DNA of 62,434 bases, filler included, from an uncultured bacterium (GCA_964637655.1; 11 parts of 11 records of this genome joined end to end with filler, not necessarily neighbours in it), one strand, 5' to 3'; counted from the first letter of the whole stretch, positions 4,412-62,434 are shown. Made by a program: numbers and translations. Notes: generated from the sequence alone by a model not told the origin.

Positions 4412-4420
4412 GGCACCGCT

Positions 4421-16699: not shown

Positions 16700-17380
16700 A
16701 TGCCGCAGGCAGCGTATTACGTGAGCGTGAACCACCAGCAGTACGGGCCGGTCGACCGGCCGACCCTGATGCAATGGCTGCAGGAGCGTCGCCTTAGCGC
16801 CATGGACTGGGTCTGGGTGGAGAGTGCGCAGGACTGGTACCCGGTCTTCATTGTGCCCGACTTGTCGGCGCTCGTACTGCACCTTGACGAAAAGCCGAAG
16901 CAGCCGCCGGTGCCGCCCGCACCCGAGACGCCCGCGGCGCAGGCCGTCCCTGATATCGGCACTCGCGTATTTTTCCATGACAAGCAGGTGACTGACGCCG
17001 AACTGGTCAAAAAGCGCCGGATGGTGCGCCTCGCCCTCGATCTCCCCATCCTCTACTCGACGCGGGCGCAGGAATTCGGCGAGACCTCGCTCTTCGAACC
17101 CTCGATGCTGATCGACATCTCTGCGCTCGGCATCGCGTTCGAGTCGAAGCACTACGTCGAACCGGGTGGCATTGTCAAGGTGGTCATCGAGTTCCCGACC
17201 GCGGCGAGCAAGTTCCAGGCACGCGGCAAGGTGGTGCGCTGCAGCCGCTCTCCGCACGACTCCGAACTCTACCAGGTCGGCTGCAAGTACTCGCTGCTGC
17301 CGCAGGCGGAAATGCGCAAACTCGAAAAATTTTTCGAGTACACCCTGCACAAGCACCAGCGCGAGCACCCGTCCGCCTGA
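16700..17380 (+). CDS. GYF_2 (DUF4339) + PilZ domain protein
   Basis: QQYGPV...WVW...DW at the N-terminus; PilZ RRMVR and DISALG motifs; GGAGGAG RBS. Confidence 0.85.
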   Translation: MPQAAYYVSVNHQQYGPVDRPTLMQWLQERRLSAMDWVWVESAQDWYPVFIVPDLSALVLHLDEKPKQPPVPPAPETPAAQAVPDIGTRVFFHDKQVTDAELVKKRRMVRLALDLPILYSTRAQEFGETSLFEPSMLIDISALGIAFESKHYVEPGGIVKVVIEFPTAASKFQARGKVVRCSRSPHDSELYQVGCKYSLLPQAEMRKLEKFFEYTLHKHQREHPSA

Positions 17381-19139: not shown

Positions 19140-20021
19140 TCAGACAGGCGGAGCCAGCGTCAGGATACGGTTGCGACCGAGGCGCTTGGCCTGATAGAGC
19201 AGGCCATCCGCCAGCGCCACCAGTTCCTGCCCGTCGCGCTCATCCTCAGGGAATGCCGCCACCCCGCCGCTGATGCTGATCTGCCCGTTGGGATGCTTTT
19301 CCCGGTTCGGGAAGGGCCAGGAGGCAATCGCCTGCCGCACCTGCTCCGCCCAGTGCAGTCCCTGCGCCCGGTCGCATCCCGGCAGCACCGCGAGAAACTC
19401 CTCGCCACCGTAGCGCCCCAGCGGGGTATGCGGCGGCAGCGCGCGCCGCGTCACCCCGACCAGTTCGATAAGCAGAATGTCGCCCGCCAGGTGCCCGTTG
19501 AGGTCGTTGAACTTCTTGAAATAGTCGATATCGAAGAACACCACCGCCAGTGGTTTCCCCTGTTTTTCCGCCAGCTCCAGTTCATTGGCCAGCAGGTCGA
19601 GGATGAAGGTCTTGTTGTAGGTGTGGGTGAAGGTGTCCGACACCGCCGCCAGCGCCGTCTCCTCCAGCTGCTCGCTGCCGATGATGCGCGTGTATTTCAG
19701 TTCGCCCGTCACGTTCTGCAGGTAATCGAGCGAGGCCACGCGCACCCCCACGTTGCGCGCGAGCACCGTGCTCAGATGGTACTTGTGCTTGAGGATCTCG
19801 TCCCAGCGCTGTCGCGCGAGCGGCTCGTCAAAGCGGAGCCCGGTCAGGGCGAAGATGATGTTGCTGTAGAGCAGTTCCCCGCTCTGCGCCACCACCTCGT
19901 CGACGTGAACGATCTCGTCACGCGTCGGGTGGCGGTCCATGGCGAAGATATCGATAATGCGGTCGTCGATGGCGGCGAGTTTCTTGAGGTCTTCGCTGTC
20001 CAGCGGACGTGAATCAGTCAT
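19140..20021 (-). CDS. Diguanylate cyclase (GGDEF)
   Basis: DIDYFKKFND..GHLAGD, RYGGEEF, LYQAKRLGRN. Confidence 0.92.
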   Translation of the reverse strand: MTDSRPLDSEDLKKLAAIDDRIIDIFAMDRHPTRDEIVHVDEVVAQSGELLYSNIIFALTGLRFDEPLARQRWDEILKHKYHLSTVLARNVGVRVASLDYLQNVTGELKYTRIIGSEQLEETALAAVSDTFTHTYNKTFILDLLANELELAEKQGKPLAVVFFDIDYFKKFNDLNGHLAGDILLIELVGVTRRALPPHTPLGRYGGEEFLAVLPGCDRAQGLHWAEQVRQAIASWPFPNREKHPNGQISISGGVAAFPEDERDGQELVALADGLLYQAKRLGRNRILTLAPPV

Positions 20022-31222: not shown

Positions 31223-31488
31223 TGGCCGGCGAAGTGCAGATCGAACTGGTGCATAACCCGCATACCGGGCGCATCGACATCATCGTCGATTACCGCTCCC
31301 CGGCCTCGGCAACACAGCGCGAGCACGAGGCGGTGCATCGCCGCATCGTCGCCACCCTGCTCGGCAGCGGCGTGCTGCAGCCCGGGCAGGAGGGCGTGGT
31401 CATCGAGCGCGGCAGCACCCCGGCGGGCGCGGCGGCAGCGCCCGCGGAACAGCCGCAGCAGCCGACCGGACAGCAGCAGGGCCAGTGA
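31222..31488 (+). CDS. Small protein (FtsH-ternary-system-like)
   Basis: TGATG coupling; NPHTGRIDIIVDY...EHEAVHRRIV motif. Confidence 0.7.
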   Translation: MAGEVQIELVHNPHTGRIDIIVDYRSPASATQREHEAVHRRIVATLLGSGVLQPGQEGVVIERGSTPAGAAAAPAEQPQQPTGQQQGQ

Positions 31489-34469: not shown

Positions 34470-34570
34470 TNNNNNNNNNNNNNNNNNNNNNNNNNNNNNN
34501 NNNNNNNNNNNNNNTTAATTAATTAANNNNNNNNNNNNNNNNNNNNNNNNNNNNNNNNNNNNNNNNNNNN

Positions 34571-35716
34571 CGTTATCGGCGGCGGCAGGGACGTGACGAC
34601 GGTCAGGCGCTCCCCGACGCGGTCACTGTCATCGGCGGCTACCATGCGACCCCGCTGCCGGAGCAGACGCTGCGGGAGTTCCCGTGCTTCAATTATGCGG
34701 TAGCCGGCGAGGGGGAACTGCCGCTGGCCGCACTGCTGGCCGGGACGGCCCCGGCGCAGATACCCGGGCTGGCGTACCGCGATGGCGGGCGCATCGTCGT
34801 CAATCCGCCCGGTCCGGTCATCAGCGAACTCGATACGCTCCCCTTCCCTGCGTTCGACCTGCTTCCCGTCTCGGACTACTACATCCTCACCACGGGGCGC
34901 GGCTGCCCCTTTGCCTGCCCCTTCTGTCTCAATATGCACGGACGGCAGGTGCGCACGCGCGACCCGCACGCCGTGGCGCAGTTTCTCGACGAACTGGTGA
35001 CGCGCTACTGCCCGCGCGAACTGATGTTCGGCAACGAGAATTTTTTCCTTGACGCTGCGCGGCCCGCGCTGCTGCTCACCGAACTTGCCAAGGGGGATTT
35101 TGCGGCGCGCACGCGCTGGCAGGCACAGACCCATGTCGGCACCATCACCCCGGAGTTGCTGATGCTGGCCAAACGCGCCGGCTGCTACAAACTGGCGTTC
35201 GGGGTCGAAACCGGCAGCGACGCGCTGCTTGCAGCGCTCGGCAAGGGACTCGACAAGGAGCGCATCCGCGCGGCAGTGCGCATGACGAAAGCGGCGGGGA
35301 TCGAGGTCGAACTCAATGTCGTGCTCGGCCTGCCGGGCGAAACAGCGCAGTCGCTGCGTGATACCGTCGATTTTCTCGTCGAGCTCAACCCAACGCTCCC
35401 TGCCATCGGCATCATGGTCCCCTACCCGGGCACCGCCGTGGCTGGCATGGCCGCGCGCGGCGAGGGTGGCTACCGCCTGCGCGACGCTCCGTGGTCCGCC
35501 TACAACAAGCAACTGGGCGACGCGCTGGAGTTCACGCATCTTTCGCGCCGCGACCTTGAGCGCTGGCAGCTGCGCGGGTATGTATCCACGTACGTGAAGA
35601 ACGGGCGCTGGCTCGATTTCGCCCGTTTCTGCCTCCGTTACCGCCGCGAGGCGCTCGCCTTCCTGCAGCATCACTTACCTGCTGCCCGCCCCGCACCGTC
35701 TTCCGCTCTACCGTAA
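34571..35716 (+). CDS. B12-binding radical SAM protein (5' truncated)
   Basis: The frame is open from the contig start: GGYHAT, GEGE, RGCPFACPFC, GVETG, PYPGT. Confidence 0.9.
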   Translation, partial: RYRRRQGRDDGQALPDAVTVIGGYHATPLPEQTLREFPCFNYAVAGEGELPLAALLAGTAPAQIPGLAYRDGGRIVVNPPGPVISELDTLPFPAFDLLPVSDYYILTTGRGCPFACPFCLNMHGRQVRTRDPHAVAQFLDELVTRYCPRELMFGNENFFLDAARPALLLTELAKGDFAARTRWQAQTHVGTITPELLMLAKRAGCYKLAFGVETGSDALLAALGKGLDKERIRAAVRMTKAAGIEVELNVVLGLPGETAQSLRDTVDFLVELNPTLPAIGIMVPYPGTAVAGMAARGEGGYRLRDAPWSAYNKQLGDALEFTHLSRRDLERWQLRGYVSTYVKNGRWLDFARFCLRYRREALAFLQHHLPAARPAPSSALP

Positions 35717-40090: not shown

Positions 40091-40190
40091 NNNNNNNNNN
40101 NNNNNNNNNNNNNNNNNNNNNNNNNNNNNNNNNNTTAATTAATTAANNNNNNNNNNNNNNNNNNNNNNNNNNNNNNNNNNNNNNNNNNNN

Positions 40191-40573
40191 AAGGCGAGGC
40201 CGGCGACCAGCTGCCCGGGCCGCGAGATGCCGGCCTGCGCGGCGCAGAGCGCGGCACCGGCGGCGGCGCGGAAGAGATGCATGACGGCGATGACATTGAA
40301 ACCGGTGGCGCCGGGCGCGAGCAGGCGCAGCAGGTGCGGTGGATAGAGTACCGCCGATTGAAAATTGGCCAGGCAGGGCGCCCCGGCCAGGATATACGGA
40401 TTCCATAGCGGCAGCTCACCGGCGCGCAGGCGCTCGCCGGCATAGACGTGCTGGGCGAAGAAATAACTGACGTCGGGGGCGTTGCTGCCGATGACTGCGC
40501 CCGGCGGGGCCTGCAGCACAGGCAGGGTGATGGCAATGGTAGCAAGCGCCAGCACCAGCAGCACGATGCGCAT
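40191..40573 (-). CDS. YfhO-like (GT-C) membrane protein, N-terminal part
   Basis: GELPLWNPY...G.P..AN.Q...LYP. Confidence 0.75.
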
Positions 40574-40706
40574 AATGGTCCTTTCCGCCTGTTCTGCCCG
40601 GAGGAGGCATGATACCTGCCGTGCCGCAGGCATGTCAACGACCACCATCAGGCCCGGCGGCAGCGCGGGCTTGATTTTCCGACAGACGCGTGTTAGATAC
40701 CGTGGT

Positions 40707-42071
40707 ATGGATCAGGCGCACCGGCAGCCGCCGGAACAATTATCCCCGTACCGGTGGACGCTCCCGGCGGCCGTGCTGCTGCTGGCGGCGGCGCTGCGGC
40801 TGGTCAACCTCGACTGCGTCGAGTTCAAGAATGACGAGGCGTACAACCTGCTGCTGGCGCTCGAGTGGGTCGACGGGGGCGCGCTGCCGCTCGTCGGTGA
40901 TGCCTCCTCCATCGGTACGCACAACCCGCCGCTCTTCGTCTGGCTGCTGGCGCTGCCGCTGCTGGTCACGCGCGACCCGGCACTGGTGACCGGGTTCATC
41001 GCGCTGCTCAATGTGGGGGCGGTCGGGCTGTTCTGGCGCTTCGGCTGCCGCTGGTTCGGTCCTGCCGCCGGGACGGTCGCCGCGCTCTGGCTGGCGGTCA
41101 ATCCCTGGGCGGTATTCTACGCGCGCAAGATCTGGATGCCCGACGTGCTCGCCTGTTTCACCCTCGCGCTCTTCTACCTGCTGTACCGCGTCGCGGTCGA
41201 TGGCCAGCGGCGGCTGGCGCCGGCGGTGTTGCTGCTGCTGGCCGCGGTCATGCTGCTCTACCCGCCGACGGTGTTCTTCACGCTGGTGGTGGCGGCCGGG
41301 TTCCTGCTTGCCGTGCCGCGCCCGCGCTGGCGCGACCTGCTGGCGGGGGCGCTGCTCGCCGGCCTGCTCGCGCTGCCGTATGTCTGGCATGACTGGCAGC
41401 ACGACTGGAGCAATCTGCGGCAGTACCGGCGGGCGGCGGCGCTCCCGGTACAGGTGCAGCCGGTGGCGCTGCGCCTGCCGCTGCTGATGACCACCACCTT
41501 CGAGTTCTGGCCCGGGCGCGCGGCGTACGGGACTGCATGGGCCGCGCTCGACGGTGCCGTGCTGCTGGTGGTGGCGGCCGGCCTGCTGCATCTCGTCCGG
41601 CGCTGGCGCGACCGCCGCGCGGCGCTGCTGCTGTTCTGGCTGCTGGTGCCGATGCTCTTCCTGCTGTTCCACCGCGCGCCGCTGCAGCGCCGCTACTTTG
41701 TCGCGTTGCTCCCCGCGGCCGGGCTGGTCTTCGGTATCGGCTGCGCGGCAGTGGCGGCGCGCTACGGCGGCGGGCGGCGCCNNNNNNNNNNGGTGCTGCC
41801 GCTGCTGGTGACGCTGCTGCTGCTGCCGCAGGCGTGGCGCAGCGCGCAGTTTGTCACGACGGGGATTACCGTGCCGCATCTGGCCTGGCTCGACTACGGG
41901 CCGCCGCTGGCGCACCGCCTGGCCGAGGTGCGCGCGCTGGCGACGGGTGACGTGGTCACCGCCGGGCGGGTGCATGGTGAAATCATCGCGCGGCACCGGG
42001 GCGAACGCAAATACGACGTCTATGCGACCCGGTACCTGCTGGAACAGGTGGTGTGGCGTGAAAACCGCTGA
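40707..42071 (+). CDS. ArnT/PMT-like GT-C glycosyltransferase (10-N gap at 41782-41791)
   Basis: ALRLVNL...F..DE, NPPLF.WL, many TM helices. Confidence 0.78.
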   Translation: MDQAHRQPPEQLSPYRWTLPAAVLLLAAALRLVNLDCVEFKNDEAYNLLLALEWVDGGALPLVGDASSIGTHNPPLFVWLLALPLLVTRDPALVTGFIALLNVGAVGLFWRFGCRWFGPAAGTVAALWLAVNPWAVFYARKIWMPDVLACFTLALFYLLYRVAVDGQRRLAPAVLLLLAAVMLLYPPTVFFTLVVAAGFLLAVPRPRWRDLLAGALLAGLLALPYVWHDWQHDWSNLRQYRRAAALPVQVQPVALRLPLLMTTTFEFWPGRAAYGTAWAALDGAVLLVVAAGLLHLVRRWRDRRAALLLFWLLVPMLFLLFHRAPLQRRYFVALLPAAGLVFGIGCAAVAARYGGGRRXXXXVLPLLVTLLLLPQAWRSAQFVTTGITVPHLAWLDYGPPLAHRLAEVRALATGDVVTAGRVHGEIIARHRGERKYDVYATRYLLEQVVWRENR

Positions 42072-45693: not shown

Positions 45694-45793
45694 NNNNNNN
45701 NNNNNNNNNNNNNNNNNNNNNNNNNNNNNNNNNNNNNTTAATTAATTAANNNNNNNNNNNNNNNNNNNNNNNNNNNNNNNNNNNNNNNNNNNN

Positions 45794-51285: not shown

Positions 51286-51385
51286 NNNNNNNNNNNNNNN
51301 NNNNNNNNNNNNNNNNNNNNNNNNNNNNNTTAATTAATTAANNNNNNNNNNNNNNNNNNNNNNNNNNNNNNNNNNNNNNNNNNNN

Positions 51386-52304
51386 GGGCAAGCGACAGCG
51401 GCAACCAGCCAAGATACGCCGGCATCGACTCGATAAAGTTCATCCCGCCGTGATAATCGCTGAAATCCGTGCCCAGAATGCCGGGAAACAGCAGCCGCAC
51501 GAGTTCAAATCCCTCGAGCCAGCACTGGCGCAGCAACATCGTATACGGCATGTCATCGCCACGCATGGTCAGGATAAACGGAAGCCAGCGCCCTGCCGAC
51601 CACACGCCGGCGAGCACCAGTGCGCCAAGCGTCACCGGCAGCGGCTGCCACCGGCTACCGCTGCGCTCATGCCGCGCCAACAGCTGCAGATACGCGGCAT
51701 ACCCGACAGCAAGCAGGATGAGGTAGAACGAGGTCTGCAACATGCCGCCGAGCAGCACCATCCCGGCAGTCAGCGCTTGGTAAATCAGGTTGCGCAGCGT
51801 TGAACGGGACCGATGTGAATGCAACAGGTACAGCCAGAGTGGCAGCCAGGTGAAATTTTGAAATGACGTGTGGCCATATACCATATTCATGACCAGCGGC
51901 GCGGAGCCCAGATATGTCAGCGCCGCGATCCCCCCCCAGAAGGCATTTCCCGCGATACGCCGGTACAGCCAGAAAGCGAACACTCCGGCCGCATAGACAT
52001 GGGCGAGCAACGCCCAGGTAAGCGCCCGTTCCTGTTGTGCCTCCGCAAGAGCGTAGAGCGGCCAGTTCAGCGGATAGAGAAACCTGTTGCCGCTGCCGGC
52101 CCAGTAGCTTGTGCCGCAGTAGTAGTACGGGTTCCATTGCGGAATTTCGAGGCGGTGGGCCGCCCTGACCCCAAACACGTGCAGCGGAAGCTCATACCCC
52201 GGGCGGTCCCACGTGCCATTCAGAACCGCCTCGCCGGTAACCGCCGGCCAAAACCCCGCCAGCACGAGCAGCGCCAGCAGCAGGTAGAAACCGCGCCGTT
52301 TCAT
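51386..52304 (-). CDS. YfhO-like (GT-C) membrane protein (truncated)
   Basis: EIPQWNPYYYCG...LYP; many TM helices. Confidence 0.75.
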
Positions 52305-53776
52305 GCCGTCGCCCGCCGGGATCGGAACAACACGCGCCGCAGCAAGCCTGCCGCCGCACGCGTCATGATCAAAAACCGGCGGACATCCTCGACCCCGGTG
52401 AGGGTATGCAGGTATCTCAGCCAGAGTCGGGGCCGCAGGTAGAACGCCAGAAAGGCACGACGCTGATACTCGAGCAGCATGCGTCCGGACAGTCCCGGCG
52501 GAGCGTAGGGGAGTTCCGTCCGCTCGGAAACATATGTGTCGATCGGCGTCACTGGCGCCGATTCGGCCGTCAGCCGGCGGTAGAATTCACTGCCGGGATG
52601 CGGCACGAAGATCGTGAAGTTGGCGGCATAAAGCGGAAGCCTCCTGCTGAAGGCGATGGTTTCCCCGATGGTTGCCGCGGTGTCGGCGGGCAGGCCGAGC
52701 ATGAAATAGCCACGCACCCGCAGGCCGGCGCGCGCCAACATCGCCACCTTTGTCTCGGCCTCCGCCACGGTCAGCGGCTTGCCGAGCGTGGCCATAACCG
52801 TTTCGTTCCCCGACTCGATACCTCCGGAGACCAGCCAGCAGCCGCCGCGCCGCAGCGCCGTTGCCACCGTACTGTCCACCGTGTTCAGGCTGATCGATGC
52901 CGACCAGCGCAGGGGAAGCCGTTCCGCGGCGAGACGGGCGCAGAATTCAAGCACCCGCTCACGATCGAGGTTGAACACATCGTCGAAAAACGAGATTTCG
53001 CGCACGCCAAAGGTGTCGACCAGATGGCGGCAGAGCCGGATCAGATACTCGGCGGAATGGGCACGGTAGCTGCGCGTCCAGATCAGGTTGGAGCCACAGA
53101 AGCGACAGCCATACGGACAGCCACGGCTGGAAACAACCGTGGCGAACGGCCGGCGGCGATAGGTCAGCGGCTGGGGATAGTAGGCCCCGAGCGTTTCCCC
53201 CAGCAGATGCATGGCGGGAAACGGAAGCGTGTCTAGATCCTCGCGCAGTGGCCGCAGCGGGTTGCACACAATCCGCCCGTCGTTGCGCCGGGCAAGGTTG
53301 GCGATGCCGCCCGGATCATCACCCCGCTCGACACAGCGCACCAGGTCAAGGAAGGCCTCCTCCCCTTCGCCACAGCAGCAATAATTGAACAGCCCATCGG
53401 CGAGAAAATCCTCCGGGCGCAGCGTCGCGTGCGGCCCCCCGGCAACCAGGACGCTTCCCGGGCAGCAGCGGCGGAGTGCCGCCGCTAGCCGGCGCGTTTG
53501 CCCCACCGTATTGCTGTAGGTAGTAATCCCGATCAGGTGCGGGGAAAAATCCGCCACCCGCCGCAGCGTCACCTTTTCCGACAGTCCAAGGCCAAGCGCG
53601 TCGATGAGCTGCACATCGCGATAACCGGCCGCCTCTAGCACGGCCGCCAGGCAAAGCAGTCCGTAGGGCTGCATGCGCGGCGCCGCCGCCTGGTAATCAC
53701 CGTAGAGCCCGCCGGTGATAGGCGGGCCGCTCAGCAGCAGGATGCGCAACCGGCGACCGCCGGGCGCGTCAGCCAC
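52301..53776 (-). CDS. B12-binding radical SAM protein
   Basis: PYGLLCLAAVL, GGPHAT, GEGE, SRGCPYGCRFC, GIESG. Confidence 0.93.
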   Translation of the reverse strand: MADAPGGRRLRILLLSGPPITGGLYGDYQAAAPRMQPYGLLCLAAVLEAAGYRDVQLIDALGLGLSEKVTLRRVADFSPHLIGITTYSNTVGQTRRLAAALRRCCPGSVLVAGGPHATLRPEDFLADGLFNYCCCGEGEEAFLDLVRCVERGDDPGGIANLARRNDGRIVCNPLRPLREDLDTLPFPAMHLLGETLGAYYPQPLTYRRRPFATVVSSRGCPYGCRFCGSNLIWTRSYRAHSAEYLIRLCRHLVDTFGVREISFFDDVFNLDRERVLEFCARLAAERLPLRWSASISLNTVDSTVATALRRGGCWLVSGGIESGNETVMATLGKPLTVAEAETKVAMLARAGLRVRGYFMLGLPADTAATIGETIAFSRRLPLYAANFTIFVPHPGSEFYRRLTAESAPVTPIDTYVSERTELPYAPPGLSGRMLLEYQRRAFLAFYLRPRLWLRYLHTLTGVEDVRRFLIMTRAAAGLLRRVLFRSRRATA

Positions 53777-54758
53777 AGCGGCGCAGCCAGCAGTCGAGAT
53801 TCACGCCACTCTCCGCCCAGTAGGTACAACCGCTGCAGGCGGGGACCGCGGCAAACTCGCCGGCAAGATGCCGGCGCCGGATCTCCCGCAGCCGATCGCC
53901 GTGCCAAATCGCCGCCAGCGTCTCATCAGCAAGGTTGCCGATTATGCCATCCGGCGTGCAGCTGGCACAGCAGCAGCTGACCGTACCATCCCAGTTGATC
54001 GCCGGGTAGAACCAGAGGAAATGGCAGGCGTAGCGCCGCGCCGGCAGCGGCACCGACGGTTCATCGGCGATCGTCCCTCCCCAGTTGGAGAATGGCGTGA
54101 TCTGCACATGATCCGCGAGATTCCGCCACTGTGCGCGAAAGGCCTGCTGTTCGGCTTCGCCGCCCGGACGGCGGACAATCTTCGCCGAGACCCGCGGCAC
54201 AGCGCTGCGCAGCATGCGCTTCAGTCGCTGCAGCGTGCGCACGTTCTCCGTGACCAGCGTGAGAACGTCTTTCCCCTTGCGCGCGGCATAATCGGACGCG
54301 GTCGCCGCGTCGATGCTGACCACCAGCGCGTCAAGCCGGGCAGCAATAAGCCGGCGGGCCGTTTCCTCGTTGAGCAAGGTTCCGTTGGTCGCCAGCTGCG
54401 TCGTATGCGCGGCACGGCGCTGGCGGGCGTGGTCGATCATGTCGGGCAGCGCGGGATTAAGCAGCGGTTCGCCCCAGTTGTGGAGAATAAGCATCGCCCG
54501 CCGGCCGTGCGCGACGCTCTCCCCGATAATGCGTTCGAACAGCGGAAACGGCATCAGGCCTCCTGCTGCTCCCGCCGCCCGCTGCCGCGCCGGCCCGCAG
54601 AATCCGCACTGCAGGTTGCAGCTCCCGGCCGGATCAATGCCGAGCACCGCGGGATACTTCCGCGCCGCGAACCAGCAGGTCGCCAGAACGCGCAACTGCC
54701 GCTGGTAGCGGATGCGGTCCTTCCATGCCGCCAGCCACACAGACGCGCGTCCGCTCAC
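53769..54758 (-). CDS. Radical SAM protein with SPASM/twitch domain
   Basis: CNLQCGFC, GEPLL, TNGTLL, C...W...I.WDG.V..CC, GNL...L..IW; GTGA-coupled start. Confidence 0.9.
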   Translation of the reverse strand: MSGRASVWLAAWKDRIRYQRQLRVLATCWFAARKYPAVLGIDPAGSCNLQCGFCGPARQRAAGAAGGLMPFPLFERIIGESVAHGRRAMLILHNWGEPLLNPALPDMIDHARQRRAAHTTQLATNGTLLNEETARRLIAARLDALVVSIDAATASDYAARKGKDVLTLVTENVRTLQRLKRMLRSAVPRVSAKIVRRPGGEAEQQAFRAQWRNLADHVQITPFSNWGGTIADEPSVPLPARRYACHFLWFYPAINWDGTVSCCCASCTPDGIIGNLADETLAAIWHGDRLREIRRRHLAGEFAAVPACSGCTYWAESGVNLDCWLRRCG

Positions 54759-55792
54759 CCGCGCAGCCTCCGCCACCAGTTGAGTGCGGCCGCCGGATGC
54801 AGGTCGCACAGCAGGTTCAGCTCCGTGTAGCACGCCACCAGGCAGGCGTTGCAGGGGGGGGATGACAGGCGTGCCGCCGCCGCGGCAAACCCGTGTGTCA
54901 GCAGGTTCACCGGCGGCACCAGACCCATCACGTCACAGCAGGGGTAGAGATCTCCGTTCGCATCGACGTAAAAGTGCATCCGGCCGGCATGGCAGCCCGG
55001 TCCGCCATCGCGCGAAGGCAGCGTATAGCCCGCGCCCGGCCAGTCACGAACCCGCTCCAGATATGCCAGAGAAGAACCCAGCTGCCGCCCCCGGGGCGAC
55101 CGCTTCAGCCGGATCAACTCCTCCGCAAGCTGCCGGCGCTGCCCGACTGTGAGCGGTGCCGCAACCGCCGCGGCAGACGCATGCAGCGAGTGCGCGGCAT
55201 CGTGACCGGTATAGAGGTACGGAACATGGACATTGATCTGTGCTCCGTAGGCCTGCGCTGTATCGAGCAGGAACTCCAATCTTTCGCGATTGGCGTCCGT
55301 AAGGACCGCCGTCAGCCAGAACGACCGCCCGGCCCGGTGCAACGCGTCTGCTGCCGCCGTGAAAGCGGCCGTCGCCCCCTCACCGCGCTGCGCATCATTC
55401 AGCGCCGGTGGGCCGTCAATGCTCAAAAAGAACAAATCAACTGCCGCAAGTCGGTCAAGCCGCTCCGGCAGCCGCACGCCGCTGGTCGCCACGGTTACAT
55501 ACAGCCCCTGCGCCCGAGCCCGAGCCGCCAGCTGCCCGAGATCGTCACGCAGGAGCGGTTCGCCGCCGGTCAGGTGGAGACGACAGGTGCCGGCGGCAGC
55601 CAGCTCGTCGATGACCCGCACGGCGGCCGCCGTATCACAGTCCGTAACCGGACGGGCCGCGGCATTGCACCACCGGCAGCGCCAGCAGCAGCGGCTGGTG
55701 ACAGCGTAGTGCACAGCCACCGGCAGGCGCATCCCTGTCAGGCGGGCCGCCGCAACACGCAAGAGACTACGCAGCATCAGCGTCGCCCTCAC
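54755..55792 (-). CDS. Radical SAM protein with a twitch-like domain
   Basis: CCWRCRWC, GGEPLLR, SIDG, CHAGR...VD.NGD.YPC, C..C...CY.E. Confidence 0.88.
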   Translation of the reverse strand: MRATLMLRSLLRVAAARLTGMRLPVAVHYAVTSRCCWRCRWCNAAARPVTDCDTAAAVRVIDELAAAGTCRLHLTGGEPLLRDDLGQLAARARAQGLYVTVATSGVRLPERLDRLAAVDLFFLSIDGPPALNDAQRGEGATAAFTAAADALHRAGRSFWLTAVLTDANRERLEFLLDTAQAYGAQINVHVPYLYTGHDAAHSLHASAAAVAAPLTVGQRRQLAEELIRLKRSPRGRQLGSSLAYLERVRDWPGAGYTLPSRDGGPGCHAGRMHFYVDANGDLYPCCDVMGLVPPVNLLTHGFAAAAARLSSPPCNACLVACYTELNLLCDLHPAAALNWWRRLRG

Positions 55793-56863: not shown

Positions 56864-56963
56864 NNNNNNNNNNNNNNNNNNNNNNNNNNNNNNNNNNNNN
56901 NNNNNNNTTAATTAATTAANNNNNNNNNNNNNNNNNNNNNNNNNNNNNNNNNNNNNNNNNNNN

Positions 56964-57408
56964 GGTACGTCTCACCGTGGCGCTGCGCGACCCGGTCGAC
57001 TCCACGCGGGTGCAGGAGCGCAACCTCGTCACGTTTGCGTTCGCGCGCATGCCCGAACCGGTCAGCGCCTTGCCGGTGACCCCGGCCGCGCCGGTCGCCC
57101 GCGGCAACGAGGGTATCGTCTACCTCGGTGGCGCGGCGGTCATTACGCCGGCCCCGGTGCCGACGGCGCCGGTCTTTGTGCCGCCCGCGCCGCCGGTGGC
57201 GGCGGATGCGGCGCGATCGGTTGACTATCATCTGAGCAAGGCGGAAGGGTTTATCCGCCTGGAACGGTACAGCGAGGCGCTGCGCGAAGCGGAAGCGGCG
57301 CTGGCGCTCGACCCGCGCGAGCCGCGGGCACTTGAATTGCAGCGGCGGCTGCGGCGGCTGGTGCTGCTCTTCCAGCCGCCGGCCGCCTCGCCGCGCAGCG
57401 GGCAGTAG
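56964..57408 (+). CDS. C-terminal fragment with a Pro-rich linker and TPR
   Basis: YSEALREAEAALALDP. Confidence 0.6.
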
Positions 57409-57484
57409 TACGGGCAGGACAGTACACGCCGGCTGAGCGGCCGGCGGGAACGATATGACGGGATTACAACGGGGAGATGCAGGC

Positions 57485-60400
57485 ATGAAAGCATGGCTGG
57501 GTAACACCAACGGATTCTTCGCGCTGGCGCTGCTGCTGGCGCTGCTCACGGCGGTTGTCGCGCCCGGGTGGAGCGAGAGCGACGCTGATCGCCTCTTCCA
57601 CGAGGGGGTGGGCTGCTACCTGCGTGGCGACCTGCCGGCCGCCCGGGCCGTGCTTGAACGCGCGCTGGCGCAGACACCCCGCCACGACAATGCCCGCCGC
57701 CTGCTTGGTGAAGTCAACGCCGAACTGCAGCGGACCGCTCCCGCTGCCGGCATGCCCGTTGCCGTTGCCGGCGCACCCGTCGCGGCGATGCCGCTGGCCG
57801 CTCGTGTCGCGGTCGGTGAAGGCCTGGTCACGCTCGGTCCGCTCCCCGCGTCCGCGCCGACCGCCGTCGCCGTGCCGCCGCAACTGCTTGCCCCGATGCT
57901 CACCGAGCGTCTCGTCCTGCGCGCCGAGCAGGTGCCGGCGGGGGTCAAGGCGCTGACCGCCATCGAGGCCTACAGCGAGCAGGGCGCGCTCAAGGTGCGC
58001 CTCAGCACGACGGGCGCCGTCGACCTCATGGACAACAAAACGTATCAGCCGGCGACGGTCGTCGTCGACCTGCTCGGCTGCCGCAATGCCCTGCCGGCTC
58101 GCTCGCTCGCCGTGGATGCCGGCGCGCTGGTGCGCATCCGCCATCTGCGGCAGCGCACGGAGCCGCTGGAGACGACCCGGGTGGTGCTCGACCTGACCAA
58201 ACCCGTACCGTACACTGTCGAACGCGTGCCCGGCGGTGTGGTGATCACCTTCCCGAATGCCGGGGCCGGTCCGGCCATGCCGCTGGCGCTCGGCGAGCCG
58301 CCGGCACTGCGCCCGGCGGTCTCCCACCTGCGTCCGCTGACCGCCTACCGCGTGCAGTCGCACTGGCTGCGCCTGATTGCCGGGGAAAAGCAGCACGGGC
58401 CCGCGGGCAGCGCGCTGCCGCGCCCGAGGGTGGTGCAGGTAACCGATGCGGCCGGAATACCGCAGGCGAATGTCCCGGTCTGGTTTTCGGTTACGGAGAA
58501 TAACGGCTGCTTCGTCCGCGCCGGCGGTGAAACCGCCGGCAGCCTGCGCGTCGTCACCGACGCGCAGGGGCAGGCGCTGGCCGAGGGGTACCGCTTCGCC
58601 ACGCGCGCCGGCGACAATGTCGTTACTGCGGCCCTCGCCGACGGGGCGGCCGGGGTGGTGTTCCTGCAGACCTCGCAGCCGGCCGAAGCGGCGGATATCG
58701 TCAAGGTGCACGGCGACGATCAGGAGGGCGTGGTCGGGACGGAACTCGACCAGCCGCTGGTGGTCGAGGTGCGCGACCGCTTTGCCAACCCGATGGCCGG
58801 GCAGCGGGTGGTCTTCACCGTGCTCTACAACGACGGGGTGGCGGATGCCAATCCCGACCGCTACGGCACCCAGTCGGTGGTGGTGACGGACGAGCACGGC
58901 CGGGCGCGGCTGGACAAGTTCAAACTCGGCACCCGCGTCGGGCGCAACCAGGTGCGCGCCAGCATCGTCGTCAATGGCGGCCGCGCCGCCCGCGGTGGCC
59001 TGCTGATCAGCGCCCAGCGCCGCGACGGTGAAATGCTCGAACGCAACGGCGAAATTGTCCGCCCGCAGGCGGTGCAGGAACATGTGCCGGTCTTCGTCAG
59101 CGAGATGCTGCGCGACCTGCCCGGCTCGCTTGATGTCGACGCCGTCGAACTGCTCTACCTCGACAATGTCACCACGCACGCACTCAAGCACGAACTGGCA
59201 CAGCTGGCGGCCGGCGACGATGACCTGAGGTTCTACGATGACGGCAATGCCGTCTATTTGAGCCCGACGGCGCCCGGTGACCGCGCGCAACTCGACGCGA
59301 AACTGCAGACGCTCAACGGCCACCGGCTGCTGCGCAAGACCGTGCGCAGCGTGGTCTTCACCGAGTCGGGGCGGCCGCAGCTGATATCGGTCGACTTCCG
59401 CGACGCGGCGGTGGTCGATGTCGTGCGCACCCTGGCGGAAATCGCCGGCTGGAACATCGTCTTCCCGCCGCAGGGCGACCCGCTCTACGGTCAGCAGGTC
59501 ACCATCCACCTCGTCGAGGTGGGCGCCAAGGACGTGCTCGACAACATCCTCGCGCAGGCGGGCTATGGCCGCGTCGAGAACGCCGGCATCATCCGCATCG
59601 TCAAGCGCAGTGATATGCCGGCCGATGTCACGCGCATCGGCCAGGGGATCGACCTCGACCGCTACGAGGGCGAGGAGAACGAGGTCGTCACCTACTTCAT
59701 CCCCGTCAAAAACCGCAAGCCGAGCAACCTGCTGACCGTGCTCAAGTCGCTGGCCGGGGCCGATGCCAACATGCAGGCGGATGACCCTTCCGGGTACATC
59801 GTCCTCACCGACCGGGTGGCCAATATCCGCCGGGTCAACGCCATGGCCCGCCTGCTCGATGCCAGCAACCTGGAACTGTCGGAAGACATCTTTATCCGGC
59901 TGATTACCCTGCAGCGGGCCAGTGCCACCGAGGTGGCCCGTCAACTGACGGCACTCTACCCGCTGATCGCCCGCGGCAGTGTGGACGCGGCGGCGTCATT
60001 CCTCGCGCAAGTGCATTCCGAGGAGCGCGGCACCTTCCTGCTCGTCTGCCCGAAATCGGTCTCTCCCCAGCTGCTTGACCTCATCGAGCAGTTTGATTCC
60101 GGGCGCTCCTACGAGGTCATCACCGTCGCCCAGGTGCTGCCGTCGAAACTCAAGATCCTGCTCGACGCCTACTTCGGGGCGAACGCGACGCAGGCGTTTG
60201 ACGATGCCAGCCGGCTGATCATCTCGGGCACCCCGGAGACGATCGCCCGCATCCGCGAGATGGTGTCGCGGCTCGATGTCGCCGGCGGCGTGACGCGTGA
60301 GCTGGTGGTGGTGGCGCTCAACCGCATCACCCCGACCGACATGACGGGCATTCTCACCAAACTCTACCCGGGGCTGGCCAATTACGTGGCGGCACCGGCG

Positions 60401-62434
60401 GCAAGCAACACCATTGTGGTGCTCGTGCCGCAGGAACAGGCGGCGGAGATTCGCGCGGTGATCGAGAAGCTCGACCACAATCTGTCCGCGCTCAACGAGA
60501 GCAGTTTGCAGCGCGAGGTCATCCGCCTGCAGCGCCTCGACCCGGAACTGGCGGTCACCAACCTGCAGCAACTCTACCCGAACGCCAAGTTCTTCGCGCT
60601 CGGGCAGTGGAAGACGCGCGAGGAACTGGTGCGCGTCGAGGGGAGCACCTCGCTGCGCGAACTCAACGTCGATTACTACGAGGGACTGTTCGGCATCCTC
60701 GCGCTGGCCAACAGCGAGGACATGCCCAACATCCGCAAGGTGGTCGCGGCGATGGACCTGACCCCCTTCCCCGCCGACTTCACCATGAAGGTCTACAGCC
60801 CGCGCTACCAGACCACCTCGCAACTCAAGGAGTGGGCGGACCAGATCATCGGGACGACGGGGCAGGGCAAAATCATCATCGACGGGTTCGGCAACCGCCT
60901 GCTGGTCTTCGACACGCAGGAGAATGTCAGTCGCATGCTCGAATTCTTCGCCCAGATGGACGTGTCACCGACCGAGGGGCTGATGACGCGCTCGGTGACG
61001 CTCGGCAACATCTCGGCGGCGGAGATGGCGTCGGTGCTCAACCTCATCTACCGCGGCTCGTTCATCGCCTCGACGACGACGGGCAAGAACATGCTCTTCG
61101 TGCAGGTGCCGCGCGAGGTCATGCCGCAGGTCATGCAGACCATCGGCGAACTCGACCAGCTGACCGTGGGCGAGACCATCACCGTGGTGCCGGTGACCGC
61201 TGACCTGCAGGTGTCCGAGGTGCAGAGCAAACTCAAGGAACTCTTCCCCAACCTCAACATCAACTACAGCGAGTGGCCCAATCCGTCAATCATCTTCGCC
61301 GGCGACGCCGCGCTGGTGGCCAAGGCGCGCGAGGTGCTGCGCGAACTCGACCAGCCGCTGGTCACGCGCACGTTCCGCCTCACCTATGGCGAAGCCGACA
61401 ACGTCAAGACGATGCTCACGGACTTCCTCTCGACGCAGGGCAAGTCGCAGGCGGACGGGCGCACCAACTCGCTGATCATCACCGATGTCACGTCCAACAT
61501 GCCGCGTCTCGAGCGCATCATCCGCGATCTCGACCGCAACCTGACGGGCGAAGGGGGCGAGGGGAGCGGCACCCGCGTCTTCTTCCTCAAGAACGCGCAG
61601 GCCGGGGAACTGGTCACCGTGCTCGGGCAGGTGGTGCAGGCGACGCGCGGGGACAACGACCTCAACGTGCTGCTCGGCACGCTGTCGTCCGACCAGCGCA
61701 CCAATTCGATCCTCGTCAACAGCACGCCGGCCAACCTGCCGCTGATTGCCGCGCTCATCGAGCAGCTCGACCGGCGCACGCCGCAGGTGCTTATCCGCAC
61801 GACCATTCTCGAGTATACGCTCAACGAAGACGAGAACATGGGTTTTGTCTGGAACTTCACCGACCGCTTCGGCGGCTACAACTGGACGAGTGTTTTCGGC
61901 GGCGCTGTTGCCGGGCCCTTCTCGCTTACCCTGACCAAGGGGCAGTTGTCGGTGGTCATGGACGCGCTGAGCAGTTCGCAGCGCTCGAATGTTCTCTCGG
62001 CGCCGAGTGTGATGACGCTCAATAACCAGGCGGCCAATATCACGGTTGGGGCTTCGCGCATGCTGCAGGAATCGCGCATCGACCCGAACACCGGTGCGGT
62101 TACCACCGGCATGGTGTCCTACAATGCCGACCTGATTGTCGATGTCACGCCGCAGATCGGGTCCGACCGCAGCGTCAAACTTGATTTCGGGCTCGACCTG
62201 ACCCAGTTCACGCCGACCAGCGACCCGGCAAGTCTGCCGACCACCACCCGCAAGCTGACCAACTCGGTTATTGTGGCGGACGGGCAGACCCTGGTGATTG
62301 GCGGGATCATCCGCGACCAGGAGGACCTGTCGCGCAGTGGCGTACCGGGGATCAAGGATATCCCGGTCCTCGGCCACCTGTTCAGCAGCAACCGCAACAG
62401 CAAGCAGAAGGTCGAACTGATGATCTTCCTGACG
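57485..62434 (+). CDS. Giant secretin (GspD/PilQ family), more than 1650 aa, 3' truncated
   Basis: The frame is open from ATG 57485 to the window end. Signal peptide, TPR, AMIN, two Big_1-like Ig domains, N0, about 10 N repeats and the secretin core (PQVLI, VLSAPSV.TLNNQ.A.I.VG, DGQTLVIGG, GVPGIKDIPVLGHLF, ELMIFLT). Confidence 0.9.
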   Translation, partial: MKAWLGNTNGFFALALLLALLTAVVAPGWSESDADRLFHEGVGCYLRGDLPAARAVLERALAQTPRHDNARRLLGEVNAELQRTAPAAGMPVAVAGAPVAAMPLAARVAVGEGLVTLGPLPASAPTAVAVPPQLLAPMLTERLVLRAEQVPAGVKALTAIEAYSEQGALKVRLSTTGAVDLMDNKTYQPATVVVDLLGCRNALPARSLAVDAGALVRIRHLRQRTEPLETTRVVLDLTKPVPYTVERVPGGVVITFPNAGAGPAMPLALGEPPALRPAVSHLRPLTAYRVQSHWLRLIAGEKQHGPAGSALPRPRVVQVTDAAGIPQANVPVWFSVTENNGCFVRAGGETAGSLRVVTDAQGQALAEGYRFATRAGDNVVTAALADGAAGVVFLQTSQPAEAADIVKVHGDDQEGVVGTELDQPLVVEVRDRFANPMAGQRVVFTVLYNDGVADANPDRYGTQSVVVTDEHGRARLDKFKLGTRVGRNQVRASIVVNGGRAARGGLLISAQRRDGEMLERNGEIVRPQAVQEHVPVFVSEMLRDLPGSLDVDAVELLYLDNVTTHALKHELAQLAAGDDDLRFYDDGNAVYLSPTAPGDRAQLDAKLQTLNGHRLLRKTVRSVVFTESGRPQLISVDFRDAAVVDVVRTLAEIAGWNIVFPPQGDPLYGQQVTIHLVEVGAKDVLDNILAQAGYGRVENAGIIRIVKRSDMPADVTRIGQGIDLDRYEGEENEVVTYFIPVKNRKPSNLLTVLKSLAGADANMQADDPSGYIVLTDRVANIRRVNAMARLLDASNLELSEDIFIRLITLQRASATEVARQLTALYPLIARGSVDAAASFLAQVHSEERGTFLLVCPKSVSPQLLDLIEQFDSGRSYEVITVAQVLPSKLKILLDAYFGANATQAFDDASRLIISGTPETIARIREMVSRLDVAGGVTRELVVVALNRITPTDMTGILTKLYPGLANYVAAPAASNTIVVLVPQEQAAEIRAVIEKLDHNLSALNESSLQREVIRLQRLDPELAVTNLQQLYPNAKFFALGQWKTREELVRVEGSTSLRELNVDYYEGLFGILALANSEDMPNIRKVVAAMDLTPFPADFTMKVYSPRYQTTSQLKEWADQIIGTTGQGKIIIDGFGNRLLVFDTQENVSRMLEFFAQMDVSPTEGLMTRSVTLGNISAAEMASVLNLIYRGSFIASTTTGKNMLFVQVPREVMPQVMQTIGELDQLTVGETITVVPVTADLQVSEVQSKLKELFPNLNINYSEWPNPSIIFAGDAALVAKAREVLRELDQPLVTRTFRLTYGEADNVKTMLTDFLSTQGKSQADGRTNSLIITDVTSNMPRLERIIRDLDRNLTGEGGEGSGTRVFFLKNAQAGELVTVLGQVVQATRGDNDLNVLLGTLSSDQRTNSILVNSTPANLPLIAALIEQLDRRTPQVLIRTTILEYTLNEDENMGFVWNFTDRFGGYNWTSVFGGAVAGPFSLTLTKGQLSVVMDALSSSQRSNVLSAPSVMTLNNQAANITVGASRMLQESRIDPNTGAVTTGMVSYNADLIVDVTPQIGSDRSVKLDFGLDLTQFTPTSDPASLPTTTRKLTNSVIVADGQTLVIGGIIRDQEDLSRSGVPGIKDIPVLGHLFSSNRNSKQKVELMIFLT

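Follow-up and report, generated by a model that had tools for sequence, protein, structure and literature searches.

A giant secretin with eleven N domains and invasin-type Ig domains in an uncultured high-GC bacterium, probably serving a type IVa pilus-like machine

How many periplasmic rings a secretin has is believed to follow from the distance it has to bridge. PilQ of Thermus thermophilus (N0-N5, 757 aa), among the largest secretin systems characterised, belongs to a PilMNO-associated type IV pilus machine and stacks six beta-alpha-beta-beta-alpha rings into a ~35-nm channel that crosses most of a ~70-nm periplasm (PMC5745081, PMC4463427). Proteobacterial type IVa pilus (T4aP) secretins, such as PilQ of P. 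aeruginosa, M. xanthus and V. cholerae, combine AMIN, N0, Secretin_N and barrel domains and lie in pilMNOP-type neighbourhoods; the 197 surveyed carry 0-3 AMIN domains (one to three in 170 of them) and a single Secretin_N, N3 (PMC7545093). GspD of type II secretion systems (T2SSs) has N0-N3 only, in about 650 aa, without AMIN or Ig, and is encoded in a gsp operon. Deinococcus radiodurans DR_0774 (8co1; N0-N3 plus a flange, 740 aa) is a tall, 35-nm secretin of a thick envelope, belted by a separate Ig-fold subunit, DR_1364, which provides a precedent for pairing Ig domains with a secretin (PMC10828601). An N-terminal TPR region in a secretin has already been described for Akkermansia muciniphila PilQ Amuc_1098 (907 aa), for which neither Ig domains nor ten N units are reported as far as the description consulted goes (PMC4960237). 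Our literature search found no report of adhesin-type Ig domains built into a secretin chain, and the papers it found on secretins, type IV pili and PilQ in Planctomycetes do not deal with long secretins.

The window analysed here, a stretch of 62,434 nucleotides, consists of 11 unlinked contigs joined by N spacers, and the real context of the secretin gene is limited to 56964..62434. Because the contigs are unlinked, the rest of the joined sequence is unusable for finding partner genes of the secretin; a scan of the 55 ORFs that the other contigs carry recognised none (E <= 1e-5). The source assembly is a fragmented draft with contigs of ~5.5 kb. An ORF search allowing open ends recovers 57455..62434 on the forward strand as a single frame of 1660 aa, stop-free to the end of the sequence, within which the ATG at 57485 is the likelier start. 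The resulting 1650-residue product, over double the ordinary length of such a channel protein and encoded without in-frame stops or N across 57485..62434, bears out the first-pass annotation, which had described an exceptionally long secretin in one ORF. The frame is open-ended at the contig end, which would explain its absence from the ORF track, where closed ORFs are listed by default. Domains were mapped with 40 sliding sub-windows of 120 aa against Pfam, and N units were further tested by comparing a leave-one-out HMM score with the maximum of 200 shuffles (given below in that order as 'leave-one-out'). The order recovered is signal peptide, weak TPR, AMIN, two Big_1-type Ig domains, a region X of ~135 aa, N0, ten Secretin_N-type units and a near-complete barrel:

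56965..57408, forward: 3' end of a gene like that of P0167 (see below), encoding an AMIN-TPR tail; cut by the contig start
57471-57476, forward: Shine-Dalgarno-like GGGGAG, read from the sequence, 8 nt 5' of the ATG at 57485
57485..62434, forward: giant secretin ORF, 1650 aa, about 175-178 kDa; runs off the contig on its 3' side
57485..57568, forward: probable signal peptide, aa 1-28, recognised by eye from a basic start followed by hydrophobic FFALALLLALLTAVVA
57587..57748, forward: weak TPR-like helical pair, aa 35-88; Pfam TPR models at 14-24 bits
57962..58240, forward: AMIN domain, aa 160-252, above the Pfam cut-off
58367..58678, forward: putative Ig domain 1, Big_1 type, aa 295-398; phmmer homology, own Big_1 score sub-threshold
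58679..58975, forward: putative Ig domain 2, Big_1 type, aa 399-497; same basis as Ig domain 1
58976..59380, forward: region X, aa 498-632, probably alpha/beta according to a low-confidence model alone
59390..59605, forward: N0, aa 636-707; neither GspD-like N0 (18.1 bits) nor STN (17.7 bits) reaches its cut-off
59681..59860, forward: N1, aa 733-792; Pfam Secretin_N; leave-one-out 15.0 vs 10.4
59882..60097, forward: N2, aa 800-871, with a loop insert; Pfam on the first half; leave-one-out 15.3 vs 2.6
60107..60277, forward: N3, aa 875-931; Pfam on the second half; leave-one-out 19.5 vs 5.8
60293..60475, forward: N4, aa 937-997; Pfam Secretin_N; leave-one-out 35.3 vs 6.2
60506..60757, forward: N5, aa 1008-1091, with a ~25-aa insert; no Pfam match; leave-one-out 10.1 vs 5.1
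60776..60958, forward: N6, aa 1098-1158; Pfam 45.8 bits; leave-one-out 8.8 vs 5.1
60977..61156, forward: N7, aa 1165-1224; Pfam Secretin_N; leave-one-out 12.6 vs 6.6
61169..61348, forward: N8, aa 1229-1288; Pfam on the C-terminal half; leave-one-out failed, 2.5 vs 6.4
61358..61534, forward: N9, aa 1292-1350; Pfam Secretin_N; leave-one-out 26.2 vs 7.8; beta-alpha-beta-beta-alpha in the AlphaFold2 model
61565..61771, forward: N10, aa 1361-1429; Pfam profile 1-69 of 69; leave-one-out 29.9 vs 12.7
61964..62434, forward: secretin beta-barrel, aa 1494-1650; the contig end removes the final profile positions and whatever tail may follow

The barrel and the N-type domains that precede it place the protein in the secretin superfamily. 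Pfam Secretin (PF00263) matches the barrel over profile positions 1-164 of 169 at 125.3 bits (cut-off 27.5), and AlphaFold2 models it with a pLDDT of about 80-95. The proposed repeats do score as Secretin_N (PF03958), at 218.8 bits in eight stretches of the whole protein against a cut-off of 28.2, and nine of the ten units exceed all 200 shuffles. The exception, N8, is modelled as beta-alpha-beta-beta-alpha with a pLDDT of about 80-90, the fold also modelled for N10; N5 matches the other nine units by hhalign (E 1.7e-4); N7 is poorly modelled by AlphaFold2, and the N0 of GspD had been aligned onto it. All ten N units are backed by Pfam, by leave-one-out HMMs or by the AlphaFold model. For N0, which the first-pass annotation had put at about 59380, STN reaches only E 0.16 in the whole-protein Pfam scan; better support comes from positions 2-155 of the NCBIfam GspD model on aa 637-792 (E 1.7e-13) and, among PDB sequences, from the N0-N2 structure of ETEC GspD (3ezj, E 1e-9). 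N0, the ten units and the barrel were all found as that annotation had them.

The N-terminal part is less uniform. The signal peptide region, without a lipobox cysteine, has its counterpart in an ortholog, P0002, as had the helical pair called TPR at first sight, which is kept in P0002 while every Pfam TPR model stays below its cut-off (best TPR_16 in a sub-window, 23.6 vs 32.7 bits). Two Pertussis_S1 scores in the Ala/Pro-rich linker at aa 47-112 (16.3 and 15.0 bits, cut-off 21.3) are taken as chance. The AMIN domain, predicted at about 57950-58250, scores 28.7 bits over the full-length protein, rising to 37.1 bits within a sub-window (cut-off 20.5).

Between AMIN and N0, homology indicates two Ig domains of the Big_1, or invasin/intimin, type, 31% identical to each other. 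The pair has 6973 homologous proteins (phmmer, E <= 0.001), the best of which reach E values of about 1e-169 to 1e-45 via many repeats; Big_1 is present in all six relatives examined (175-282 bits) and Invasin_D3 in five. Their own Pfam Big_1 score (PF02369, 32.5 bits in two stretches of the whole protein) lies slightly under the cut-off of 34.9, so that the two Big_1-like repeats proposed at the outset hold by relationship and fall just short by direct score. Both units are all-beta in a low-confidence AlphaFold2 model of aa 140-740 built on a 2-row alignment, with a mean pLDDT of 40.2. PDB sequences gave no phmmer match to Ig-Ig-X at E <= 1, and a profile of four Ig units reached E 0.38 there at best. 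Region X has no Pfam match in the sliding windows and no PDB sequence match, and its sole match among 1.84 billion representatives is P0002. Its identity as a degenerate N or N0 domain was considered and rejected (hhalign E 0.065 against the N units, 0.28 against N0).

P0002, at locus L001, is the one colinear ortholog found (51-54% identity). It is colinear with the secretin from signal peptide to N4 (51% identity over 1069 columns); the L001 copy prolongs the match to N7, and the repeat HMM finds seven units there. By these alignments the architecture from signal peptide to N7 is conserved in a second organism and rare in the databases searched, in keeping with the suspicion that it would not prove common. 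Twelve long database secretins have 1-7 Secretin_N stretches against eight here by the same Pfam measure. After the ortholog, the closest long relatives are planctomycete-type secretins (P0005-P0008, P0011-P0016; 1238-1340 aa, 23-34% identity), which likewise place many Secretin_N domains ahead of the barrel but have 4-7 stretches and no Pfam AMIN, Big_1 or TPR. Separately, P0002 in the ESM Atlas leads, at a score of 0.78, to TPR+AMIN+STN PilQ-like clusters of Thermodesulfobacteriota, which we regard as a lead and not as evidence.

Locus L001 also supplies a gene neighbourhood, in which the secretin ends a pilM-N-O-P-type string. Its members are a 902-aa PilM protein with a weak PilN part (TIGR01175, 175 bits, cut-off 133), PilO (Pfam, 61.8 bits), a protein of 195 aa that matches PilP weakly (E 0.0012) and, directly upstream of the secretin, the 1067-aa P0167, in which eight tandem Ig repeats of ~104 aa are followed by AMIN and TPR. 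The upstream 10 kb further encodes, on the same strand as the secretin, a PilT/PilU-family ATPase (434 bits, cut-off 319). A P0167-type gene adjoins the secretin in both loci, since the product of 56965..57408 is 63% identical to P0167 residues 923-1066 over 147 aa (E 4e-42). We rejected the idea that this upstream gene had recently given rise to the secretin's N-terminal module by duplication, as the two align in AMIN alone, and weakly there (26% identity, E 0.005). The best NCBIfam match of the PilM fusion is the Akkermansia PilM-like Amuc_1101 family (232 bits), and the giant secretin matches the Amuc_1098 family weakly (70 bits), both scores lying far below the family cut-offs of 650 and 750 (NF042912, NF045709). 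No pilin, PilB or PilC gene was seen in the 10 kb upstream in L001, where the locus is cut, or among the 55 ORFs of the window's other contigs (E <= 1e-5), a small part of a draft whose contigs are unlinked.

In our reading, to which we give a probability of roughly 0.62, the gene provides a type IVa pilus-like (type IV filament) machine of an uncultured high-GC bacterium with its outer-membrane secretin, because the PilT/PilU, PilM-PilN fusion, PilO and weak PilP-like neighbours, together with AMIN, point to such a machine. Where the first-pass annotation had left the choice among T2SS, type IV pilus and uptake machine, the ortholog's context narrows it, yet barrel and N0 resemble GspD more closely, by sequence as well as by fold. 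The giant secretin differs from T4aP PilQ in that its single AMIN is accompanied by an inserted Ig-Ig-X segment and by ten Secretin_N-type units, and it misses the cut-off of the NCBIfam PilQ model (TIGR02515, 226.3 bits in the whole protein, cut-off 284.35). The GspD model (TIGR02517) scores higher on the whole protein, narrowly under its cut-off of 351.35 at 340.8 bits, a value that is inflated because seven stretches of repeated N domains match; it also leads on the barrel alone (144.7 vs 117.5 bits for PilQ) and on N0-N1 alone (50 vs 38 bits). T2SS structures (ETEC 5zdh, V. vulnificus 6i1y, K. pneumoniae PulD 6hcg) give the best match for N0, tandem N units and barrel. Among 23 matches in a PDB sequence search, 5zdh reaches 123 bits against 84 for M. 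xanthus PilQ. Foldseek with the C-terminal model, a comparison biased toward GspD because most of the alignment behind the model is GspD-like, finds 53 PDB chains at E <= 0.001 with secretins leading, 5zdh at the top (E 7.7e-29) and V. cholerae PilQ at E 3.9e-19. The best PDB matches by sequence and fold are all T2SS GspD, with PilQ structures weaker by about 10 orders of E-value.

These scores raise the alternative that the protein is itself a type II secretion secretin, a tube for a pseudopilus piston and folded exoproteins, with the PilM-PilN fusion and the PilO-like protein as GspL and GspM equivalents. A fused PilM-PilN is the layout of T2SS GspL, which we count against the type IVa pilus reading. 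Among the closest relatives of ordinary and of greater length, those with a name go by GspD or 'secretin N-terminal domain-containing' and come from Planctomycetota, Armatimonadota and Proteobacteria, and the D. radiodurans secretin, once considered PilQ, became GspD after its structure was solved (PMC10828601). Against this, the L001 neighbours reach the curated PilM cut-off and the Pfam PilO cut-off, whereas no Gsp family, including GspL, GspM and GspC, was found in the six L001 upstream proteins scanned (E <= 0.01). The same gene string contains a PilT/PilU retraction ATPase, and we know of no T2SS with an ATPase of that type. AMIN within a secretin is, moreover, a T4aP feature in the survey consulted (PMC7545093). 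We consider a T2SS assignment unlikely on this balance.

For the type IVa pilus-like machine, analogy with solved secretins suggests that 12-15 protomers (2.1-2.6 MDa) would make a gated channel, whose eleven N rings would form a periplasmic tube roughly at least 1.5 times as long as the ~35-nm channel of Thermus PilQ. Such a tube would start at a predicted inner-membrane platform of PilM-N/PilO/PilP-like proteins and lead a retractile pilus to the surface, and perhaps DNA or another cargo as well. More speculatively, AMIN, a peptidoglycan-binding-type domain, may be the peptidoglycan anchor of the assembly; between this anchor and the N0 ring, the Ig pair together with X may serve as a stiff spacer or an outer collar (a conjecture), and the upstream 8-Ig/AMIN/TPR protein may be an accessory ring or strut. 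By likeness to Thermus PilQ the channel might bridge a wide periplasm or one more layer of the envelope, as the first-pass annotation proposed. Thermus PilQ, absent from the 23 PDB sequences matched, is compared here by description: both are long stacks of beta-alpha-beta-beta-alpha rings, and the giant secretin (N0 and ten units, >1650 aa) adds AMIN, two Big_1 Ig domains, X and a weak TPR, for which the accounts consulted contain no report in Thermus PilQ (PMC5745081, PMC4463427). In D. radiodurans, by contrast, the Ig is a separate subunit (PMC10828601); here two Ig domains lie inside the secretin chain, a separate 8-Ig protein is encoded upstream, and 8co1 aligns to aa 1124-1650 in the PDB sequence search.

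The channel might also be chiefly something other than a pilus port, namely a structural spacer keeping a thick envelope together, a DNA-uptake pore or a polymer 'nozzle'. Each role has a described parallel: DR_0774 is reported to stabilise the envelope as an abundant spacer 35 nm tall (PMC10828601), Thermus PilQ has a double function in pili and DNA uptake (PMC5745081), and PilQ/GspD secretins are reported to serve as slime nozzles in cyanobacteria and myxobacteria (PMC12475490). The Ig and AMIN domains would fit wall attachment. No sequence feature, however, points specifically to spacer, uptake or nozzle, the PilT/PilU, PilM and PilO context predicts a dynamic pilus, and all three functions are compatible with a pilus port, which makes a mainly non-pilus role improbable.

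Part of the architecture depends on one assembly. In the L001 copy (coverage 4.87) the reading frame and all DNA similarity end abruptly at the N7/N8 junction (nt ~61178), with a stop 13 codons on, so that N8-N10 and the barrel are attached to the remainder in the window's contig only and the junction has no confirmation by a second sequence in the searches made. Beyond the break, L001 holds an unrelated minus-strand ORF, and its contig ends 700 nt later. Yet the L001 product as read would be a 1344-aa secretin-type protein without a barrel and non-functional, which places the break more plausibly on the side of L001. That an AMIN-Ig-N0-N7 gene was joined, through similar N repeats in a fragmented draft, to the N8-N10-barrel of a second secretin, the true proteins being shorter, we hold to be very improbable despite N8 being the unit most unlike the others, since the contig is free of N, frame and domain phase are kept for 1250 nt past the junction, GC3 is alike on its two sides (0.93-0.95 5' of it, 0.91-0.93 3' of it), no ordinary-length secretin is >35% identical to the C-terminal part, and the undisputed AMIN, two Ig domains, X, N0 and N1-N7 alone top known secretins in ring number.

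An eleven-ring protomer would roughly double the six rings of Thermus PilQ, and the Ig pair would be the first case found of adhesin-type Ig domains within a secretin chain. The giant secretin predicts an unusual envelope in an uncultured lineage and offers a concrete target for cryo-ET and cryo-EM, as well as a natural test of how ring number, AMIN peptidoglycan anchoring and inner-membrane coupling scale with envelope width. We can envisage, tentatively and with the odds against it, that the secretin and the 8-Ig/AMIN/TPR protein would together make a conduit through the envelope, some 50-80 nm long and architecturally a class of its own, in which Ig collars sheathe or brace the stack of eleven rings and two AMIN domains pin it to peptidoglycan; it would span a diderm envelope of a kind not yet described, very wide or multilayered, of a deep-branching lineage with a Terrabacteria-like sigma factor, X being a new ring-building or adaptor fold linking the collars to N0. 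Should the organism be a diderm related to Terrabacteria, the locus would also bear on the variety of outer-membrane machines in such lineages. Another contig of the window, perhaps from another organism, encodes a sigma-70 factor whose best match is 57% identical and whose named relatives, ~41-54% identical, belong to Actinomycetota, Thermomicrobium and Clostridia.

P0001, the giant secretin of the window, is genuine: its architecture is a rare extreme within a well-known family, and it carries one unassigned domain. Its gene lies in a single + strand frame, window 57455..62434 (1660 aa when open ends are allowed), that reaches the contig end without a stop. The motif GGGGAG at 57471-57476 stands 8 nt upstream of ATG 57485, and translation from this start yields 1650 aa (178.3 kDa) with an N-terminus, basic and then hydrophobic, that reads by eye as a typical signal peptide. 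The contig (56964..62434) contains zero N, and the ORF track plausibly missed the gene because the tool lists end-running ORFs only on request.

A Pfam scan of whole P0001 returned Secretin_N at 218.8 bits in 8 stretches; Secretin at 125.3 bits over aa 1494-1650 (positions 1-164 of the 169 in the profile, which leaves out just the final residues and a tail, if there is one); AMIN at 28.7 bits (cut-off 20.5); Big_1 at 32.5 bits in two stretches, below its cut-off of 34.9; and several TPR models at 14-19 bits, every one under cut-off. Domains were placed by scanning 40 overlapping 120-aa pieces of P0001:

aa 35-88, TPR-like
aa 160-252, AMIN
aa ~295-398 and 399-497, Big_1-like units
aa ~498-632, region X, without a family
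aa 636-707, N0/STN, weak
aa 739 to 1434, Secretin_N matches

N0 is better supported than by the weak piece-scan match, because positions 2-155 of the NCBIfam GspD model align with aa 637-792 (E 1.7e-13) and the sequence of the ETEC GspD N0-N2 crystal structure (3ezj) matches P0001 at E 1e-9. Pertussis_S1 matches of 16.3 and 15.0 bits (cut-off 21.3) at aa 47-112, window 57620-57820, are regarded as chance, being sub-threshold and located in an Ala/Pro-rich linker after the TPR.

Ten N units were delimited, from N1 (733-792) to N10 (1361-1429), and each was scored, along with 200 shuffled copies of it, by an HMM of the remaining nine. Nine of the ten outscore all 200 shuffles; N8 does not (2.5 bits vs a shuffle maximum of 6.4), and its C-terminal half matches Pfam Secretin_N. 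An AlphaFold2 model of aa 1160-1650 (61-row alignment, mean pLDDT 77.9) gives N8, N9 and N10 each as beta-alpha-beta-beta-alpha, with pLDDT of about 80-93. N5, which holds an insert of ~25 aa and is missed by Pfam, scores 10.1 vs a shuffle maximum of 5.1 in the leave-one-out test and aligns with the other nine units at E 1.7e-4 (hhalign). N7 is poorly modelled because the homologs' N0 was aligned onto it; it is backed by Pfam and by the leave-one-out test. The total is N0 plus ten units, and the count of about ten made in the first-pass annotation is therefore correct.

The same annotation had read two Big_1-like repeats by eye, a claim confirmed here through homology. Exhaustive phmmer with aa 271-640 against 1.84 billion representatives found 6973 proteins at E <= 0.001, and 149 of the best 150 listed are long proteins with many repeats (868-4788 aa, matched in 5-35 stretches) in which the best stretch never passes query position 249, so that only the two Ig units are matched. 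Pfam scans of six such relatives gave Big_1 at 175-282 bits in all six and Invasin_D3 in five. By this homology both units truly belong to the Big_1 (invasin/intimin-type) Ig family, even with a Pfam score that falls 2.4 bits short of the cut-off. A profile of four Ig units detected no PDB sequence (best E 0.38), and the only model of the Ig region has a pLDDT of 40.2. Region X matches no Pfam family and no PDB sequence; X as an N unit or as N0 was rejected (hhalign E 0.065 against the N-unit profile, 0.28 against N0). It looks alpha/beta in a low-confidence model, and the sole protein covering it in the exhaustive search of 1.84 billion representatives is P0002, an incomplete ortholog sequence of the secretin. 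The alignment with P0002 shows X to be conserved in both organisms.

Searched at full length against 5.8 billion protein clusters through a word index, P0001 gave 16 matches: one colinear relative, three Ig-repeat proteins and twelve secretins. The colinear relative, P0002 (1088 aa, partial), aligns with it from signal peptide through N4 in 1069 columns at 51% identity; the twelve secretins are 23-34% identical over 11-40% of the query. The latter carry 1, 1, 4, 5, 5, 5, 5, 5, 5, 6, 6 and 7 Secretin_N stretches, vs 8 in P0001; AMIN occurs in only two of them (PilQ-like, 940-967 aa) and Big_1 in none. In one genome per species across 185,579 species a single locus was found, L001 (CAZFBR010000031.1), which holds the P0002 gene itself, carries the match on as far as aa 1234 and contains seven N units by the repeat HMM. 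By these searches of protein clusters and one genome per species, the exact architecture is seen in two organisms only. An exact-word search of the open-access literature returned no relevant report of Ig/Big_1 domains in secretins or of very long secretins.

The window itself says little about the gene's neighbours. It consists of 11 pieces, sorted by length from 5749 down to 5471 bp and separated by ten N44-TTAATTAATTAA-N44 spacers, which is the mark of a fragmented draft or metagenome-assembled genome:

5750-5849, 11580-11679, 17398-17497, 23174-23273, 28826-28925, spacers 1-5
34471-34570, 40091-40190, 45694-45793, 51286-51385, 56864-56963, spacers 6-10

Because the pieces are separate contigs, adjacency of genes across spacers is meaningless and the other ten pieces are uninformative on neighbours; the secretin gene lies on the last piece (56964..62434), with only 490 bases of genuine upstream context. 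The 10 N at 41782-41791, inside contig 8 and in or beside the reading frame 40482-42071, mark a gap left by scaffolding and differ from the 44-N spacers.

L001 offers 10 kb upstream of the secretin ortholog, where all listed genes are on the same strand as the ortholog:

PilT/PilU-family ATPase (TIGR01420 434 bits, cut-off 319)
962-2542, +, radical-SAM protein, between pilT/pilU and pilM
2747-5455, +, PilM-type protein, 902 aa (TIGR01175 175 bits, cut-off 133)
PilO (Pfam 61.8 bits)
protein of 195 aa, weakly matching PilP (E 0.0012)
6647-9850, +, P0167, directly upstream of the secretin ortholog: signal peptide, eight tandem ~104-aa Ig-like repeats, AMIN, C-terminal TPR

The radical-SAM gene is an odd member of this pilus gene string. 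In the 902-aa protein an insert of ~330 aa, with PilM on either side, parts the PilM/FtsA matches (residues 7-268) from an MreB-like one (586-652), and PilN matches weakly at 783-861. This makes it a PilM-PilN fusion, reminiscent of GspL and Akkermansia Amuc_1101, and its best family is Akkermansia Amuc_1101-like (232 bits, far under that family's cut-off). P0167 scores 34.5 bits for Big_1, just short of the cut-off, and its last 144 residues are 63% identical to the truncated ORF upstream of the secretin at window 56965-57408 (+), so that at least the P0167-secretin adjacency is conserved.

Together with the AMIN domain, this gene context points to a type IVa pilus-like machine. The main rival is that the secretin belongs to a T2SS. 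Its scores lie nearer GspD than PilQ for the whole protein (340.8 vs 226.3 bits, both under cut-off), the barrel alone (144.7 vs 117.5) and N0-N1 (50 vs 38), and its best PDB matches by sequence are T2SS secretins. Fold matches rank likewise (5zdh E 7.7e-29, D. radiodurans 8co1 2e-25, V. cholerae PilQ 3.9e-19), in a comparison biased by a model alignment that is mostly GspD-like. Because the context is Pil-type and the scores are nearer GspD, we describe the protein as a putative GspD-like core recruited to a PilM/N/O/P-PilT context and keep the T2SS as the rival.

A further alternative, that the 1650-aa ORF is an assembly chimera joined at N7/N8, stems from L001. DNA similarity between L001 and the window is ~80% until window nt ~61178, at the N7/N8 junction, and then abruptly gone; the L001 frame closes 13 codons past the junction, and this stretch (L001 13860-14589) goes on with a minus-strand ORF of 150 aa, unrelated to the secretin, until the contig ends 700 nt later. 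The L001 contig has a coverage of 4.87. Its break reflects either chimeric joining within a low-coverage co-assembly or a gene that is genuinely truncated. N8-N10 and the barrel are linked to the rest of the gene in one sequence only, with no second sequence to confirm it. Against a chimera in the window, frame and domain phase run on for 1250 nt beyond the junction, GC3 is 0.93-0.95 before it vs 0.91-0.93 after, and ordinary-length secretins are all <=35% identical to aa 1160-1650 (593 matches); we hold such a join to be very improbable. Even if the ORF is chimeric, the undisputed part keeps N0, seven N units and the Ig insert.

For the continuous secretin, known systems suggest an assembly. 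The 757-aa Thermus PilQ is described as six stacked rings forming a ~35-nm channel across most of a ~70-nm periplasm (PMC5745081, PMC4463427), an unusual ring number in one of the largest systems characterised (PMC5745081), whereas P0001 has N0 and ten units. DR_0774 of D. radiodurans is given as 35 nm tall (PMC10828601). A survey of 197 proteobacterial T4aP secretins describes 0-3 AMIN domains, one N0, a single Secretin_N, as against ten N units here, and the barrel, and calls AMIN domains peptidoglycan-binding (PMC7545093); N-terminal TPRs are reported on Akkermansia PilQ (PMC4960237), a precedent for secretins that bear a TPR. If solved secretins are taken as the model, 12-15 copies (2.1-2.6 MDa) would assemble into a gated barrel above eleven rings, and Thermus-like stacking would extrapolate to a tube of roughly 50-60 nm. 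The Ig pair and X, between AMIN and N0, might be a spacer through which the anchor gets to the wall when the N0 ring is far off, or might instead form a collar on the outside. A candidate for an accessory ring is P0167, which has an AMIN domain of its own besides eight Ig repeats; a precedent is DR_1364, described as an Ig-fold belt protein around the Deinococcus secretin (PMC10828601). The architecture would, by inference from these analogies, yield a testable prediction on envelope dimensions.

GC content is 60-73% across contigs. A sigma-70 factor on another contig has a best match of 57% identity; its named matches, at about 41-54%, are from Actinomycetota, Thermomicrobium and Clostridia. 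A NiFe-hydrogenase module lies on other contigs. Further genes in the window include:

4421-5749, 34571-35713 and 52304-53776, three B12-binding radical-SAM genes
16520-17377, +, GYF_2+PilZ protein
18123-18956, -, flagellin
19143-20021, -, GGDEF diguanylate cyclase
53772-54833, SPASM radical-SAM gene

On this gene content, the organism probably has flagella and signals through c-di-GMP. At 29123-34466 (+), an FtsH-like AAA+/M41 protease (699 aa) is followed by an fvmX3-analog (88 aa) and a 994-aa fvmX7-domain protein, a set known in Pfam as the 'FtsH ternary system' and predicted to act in conflict or defence.
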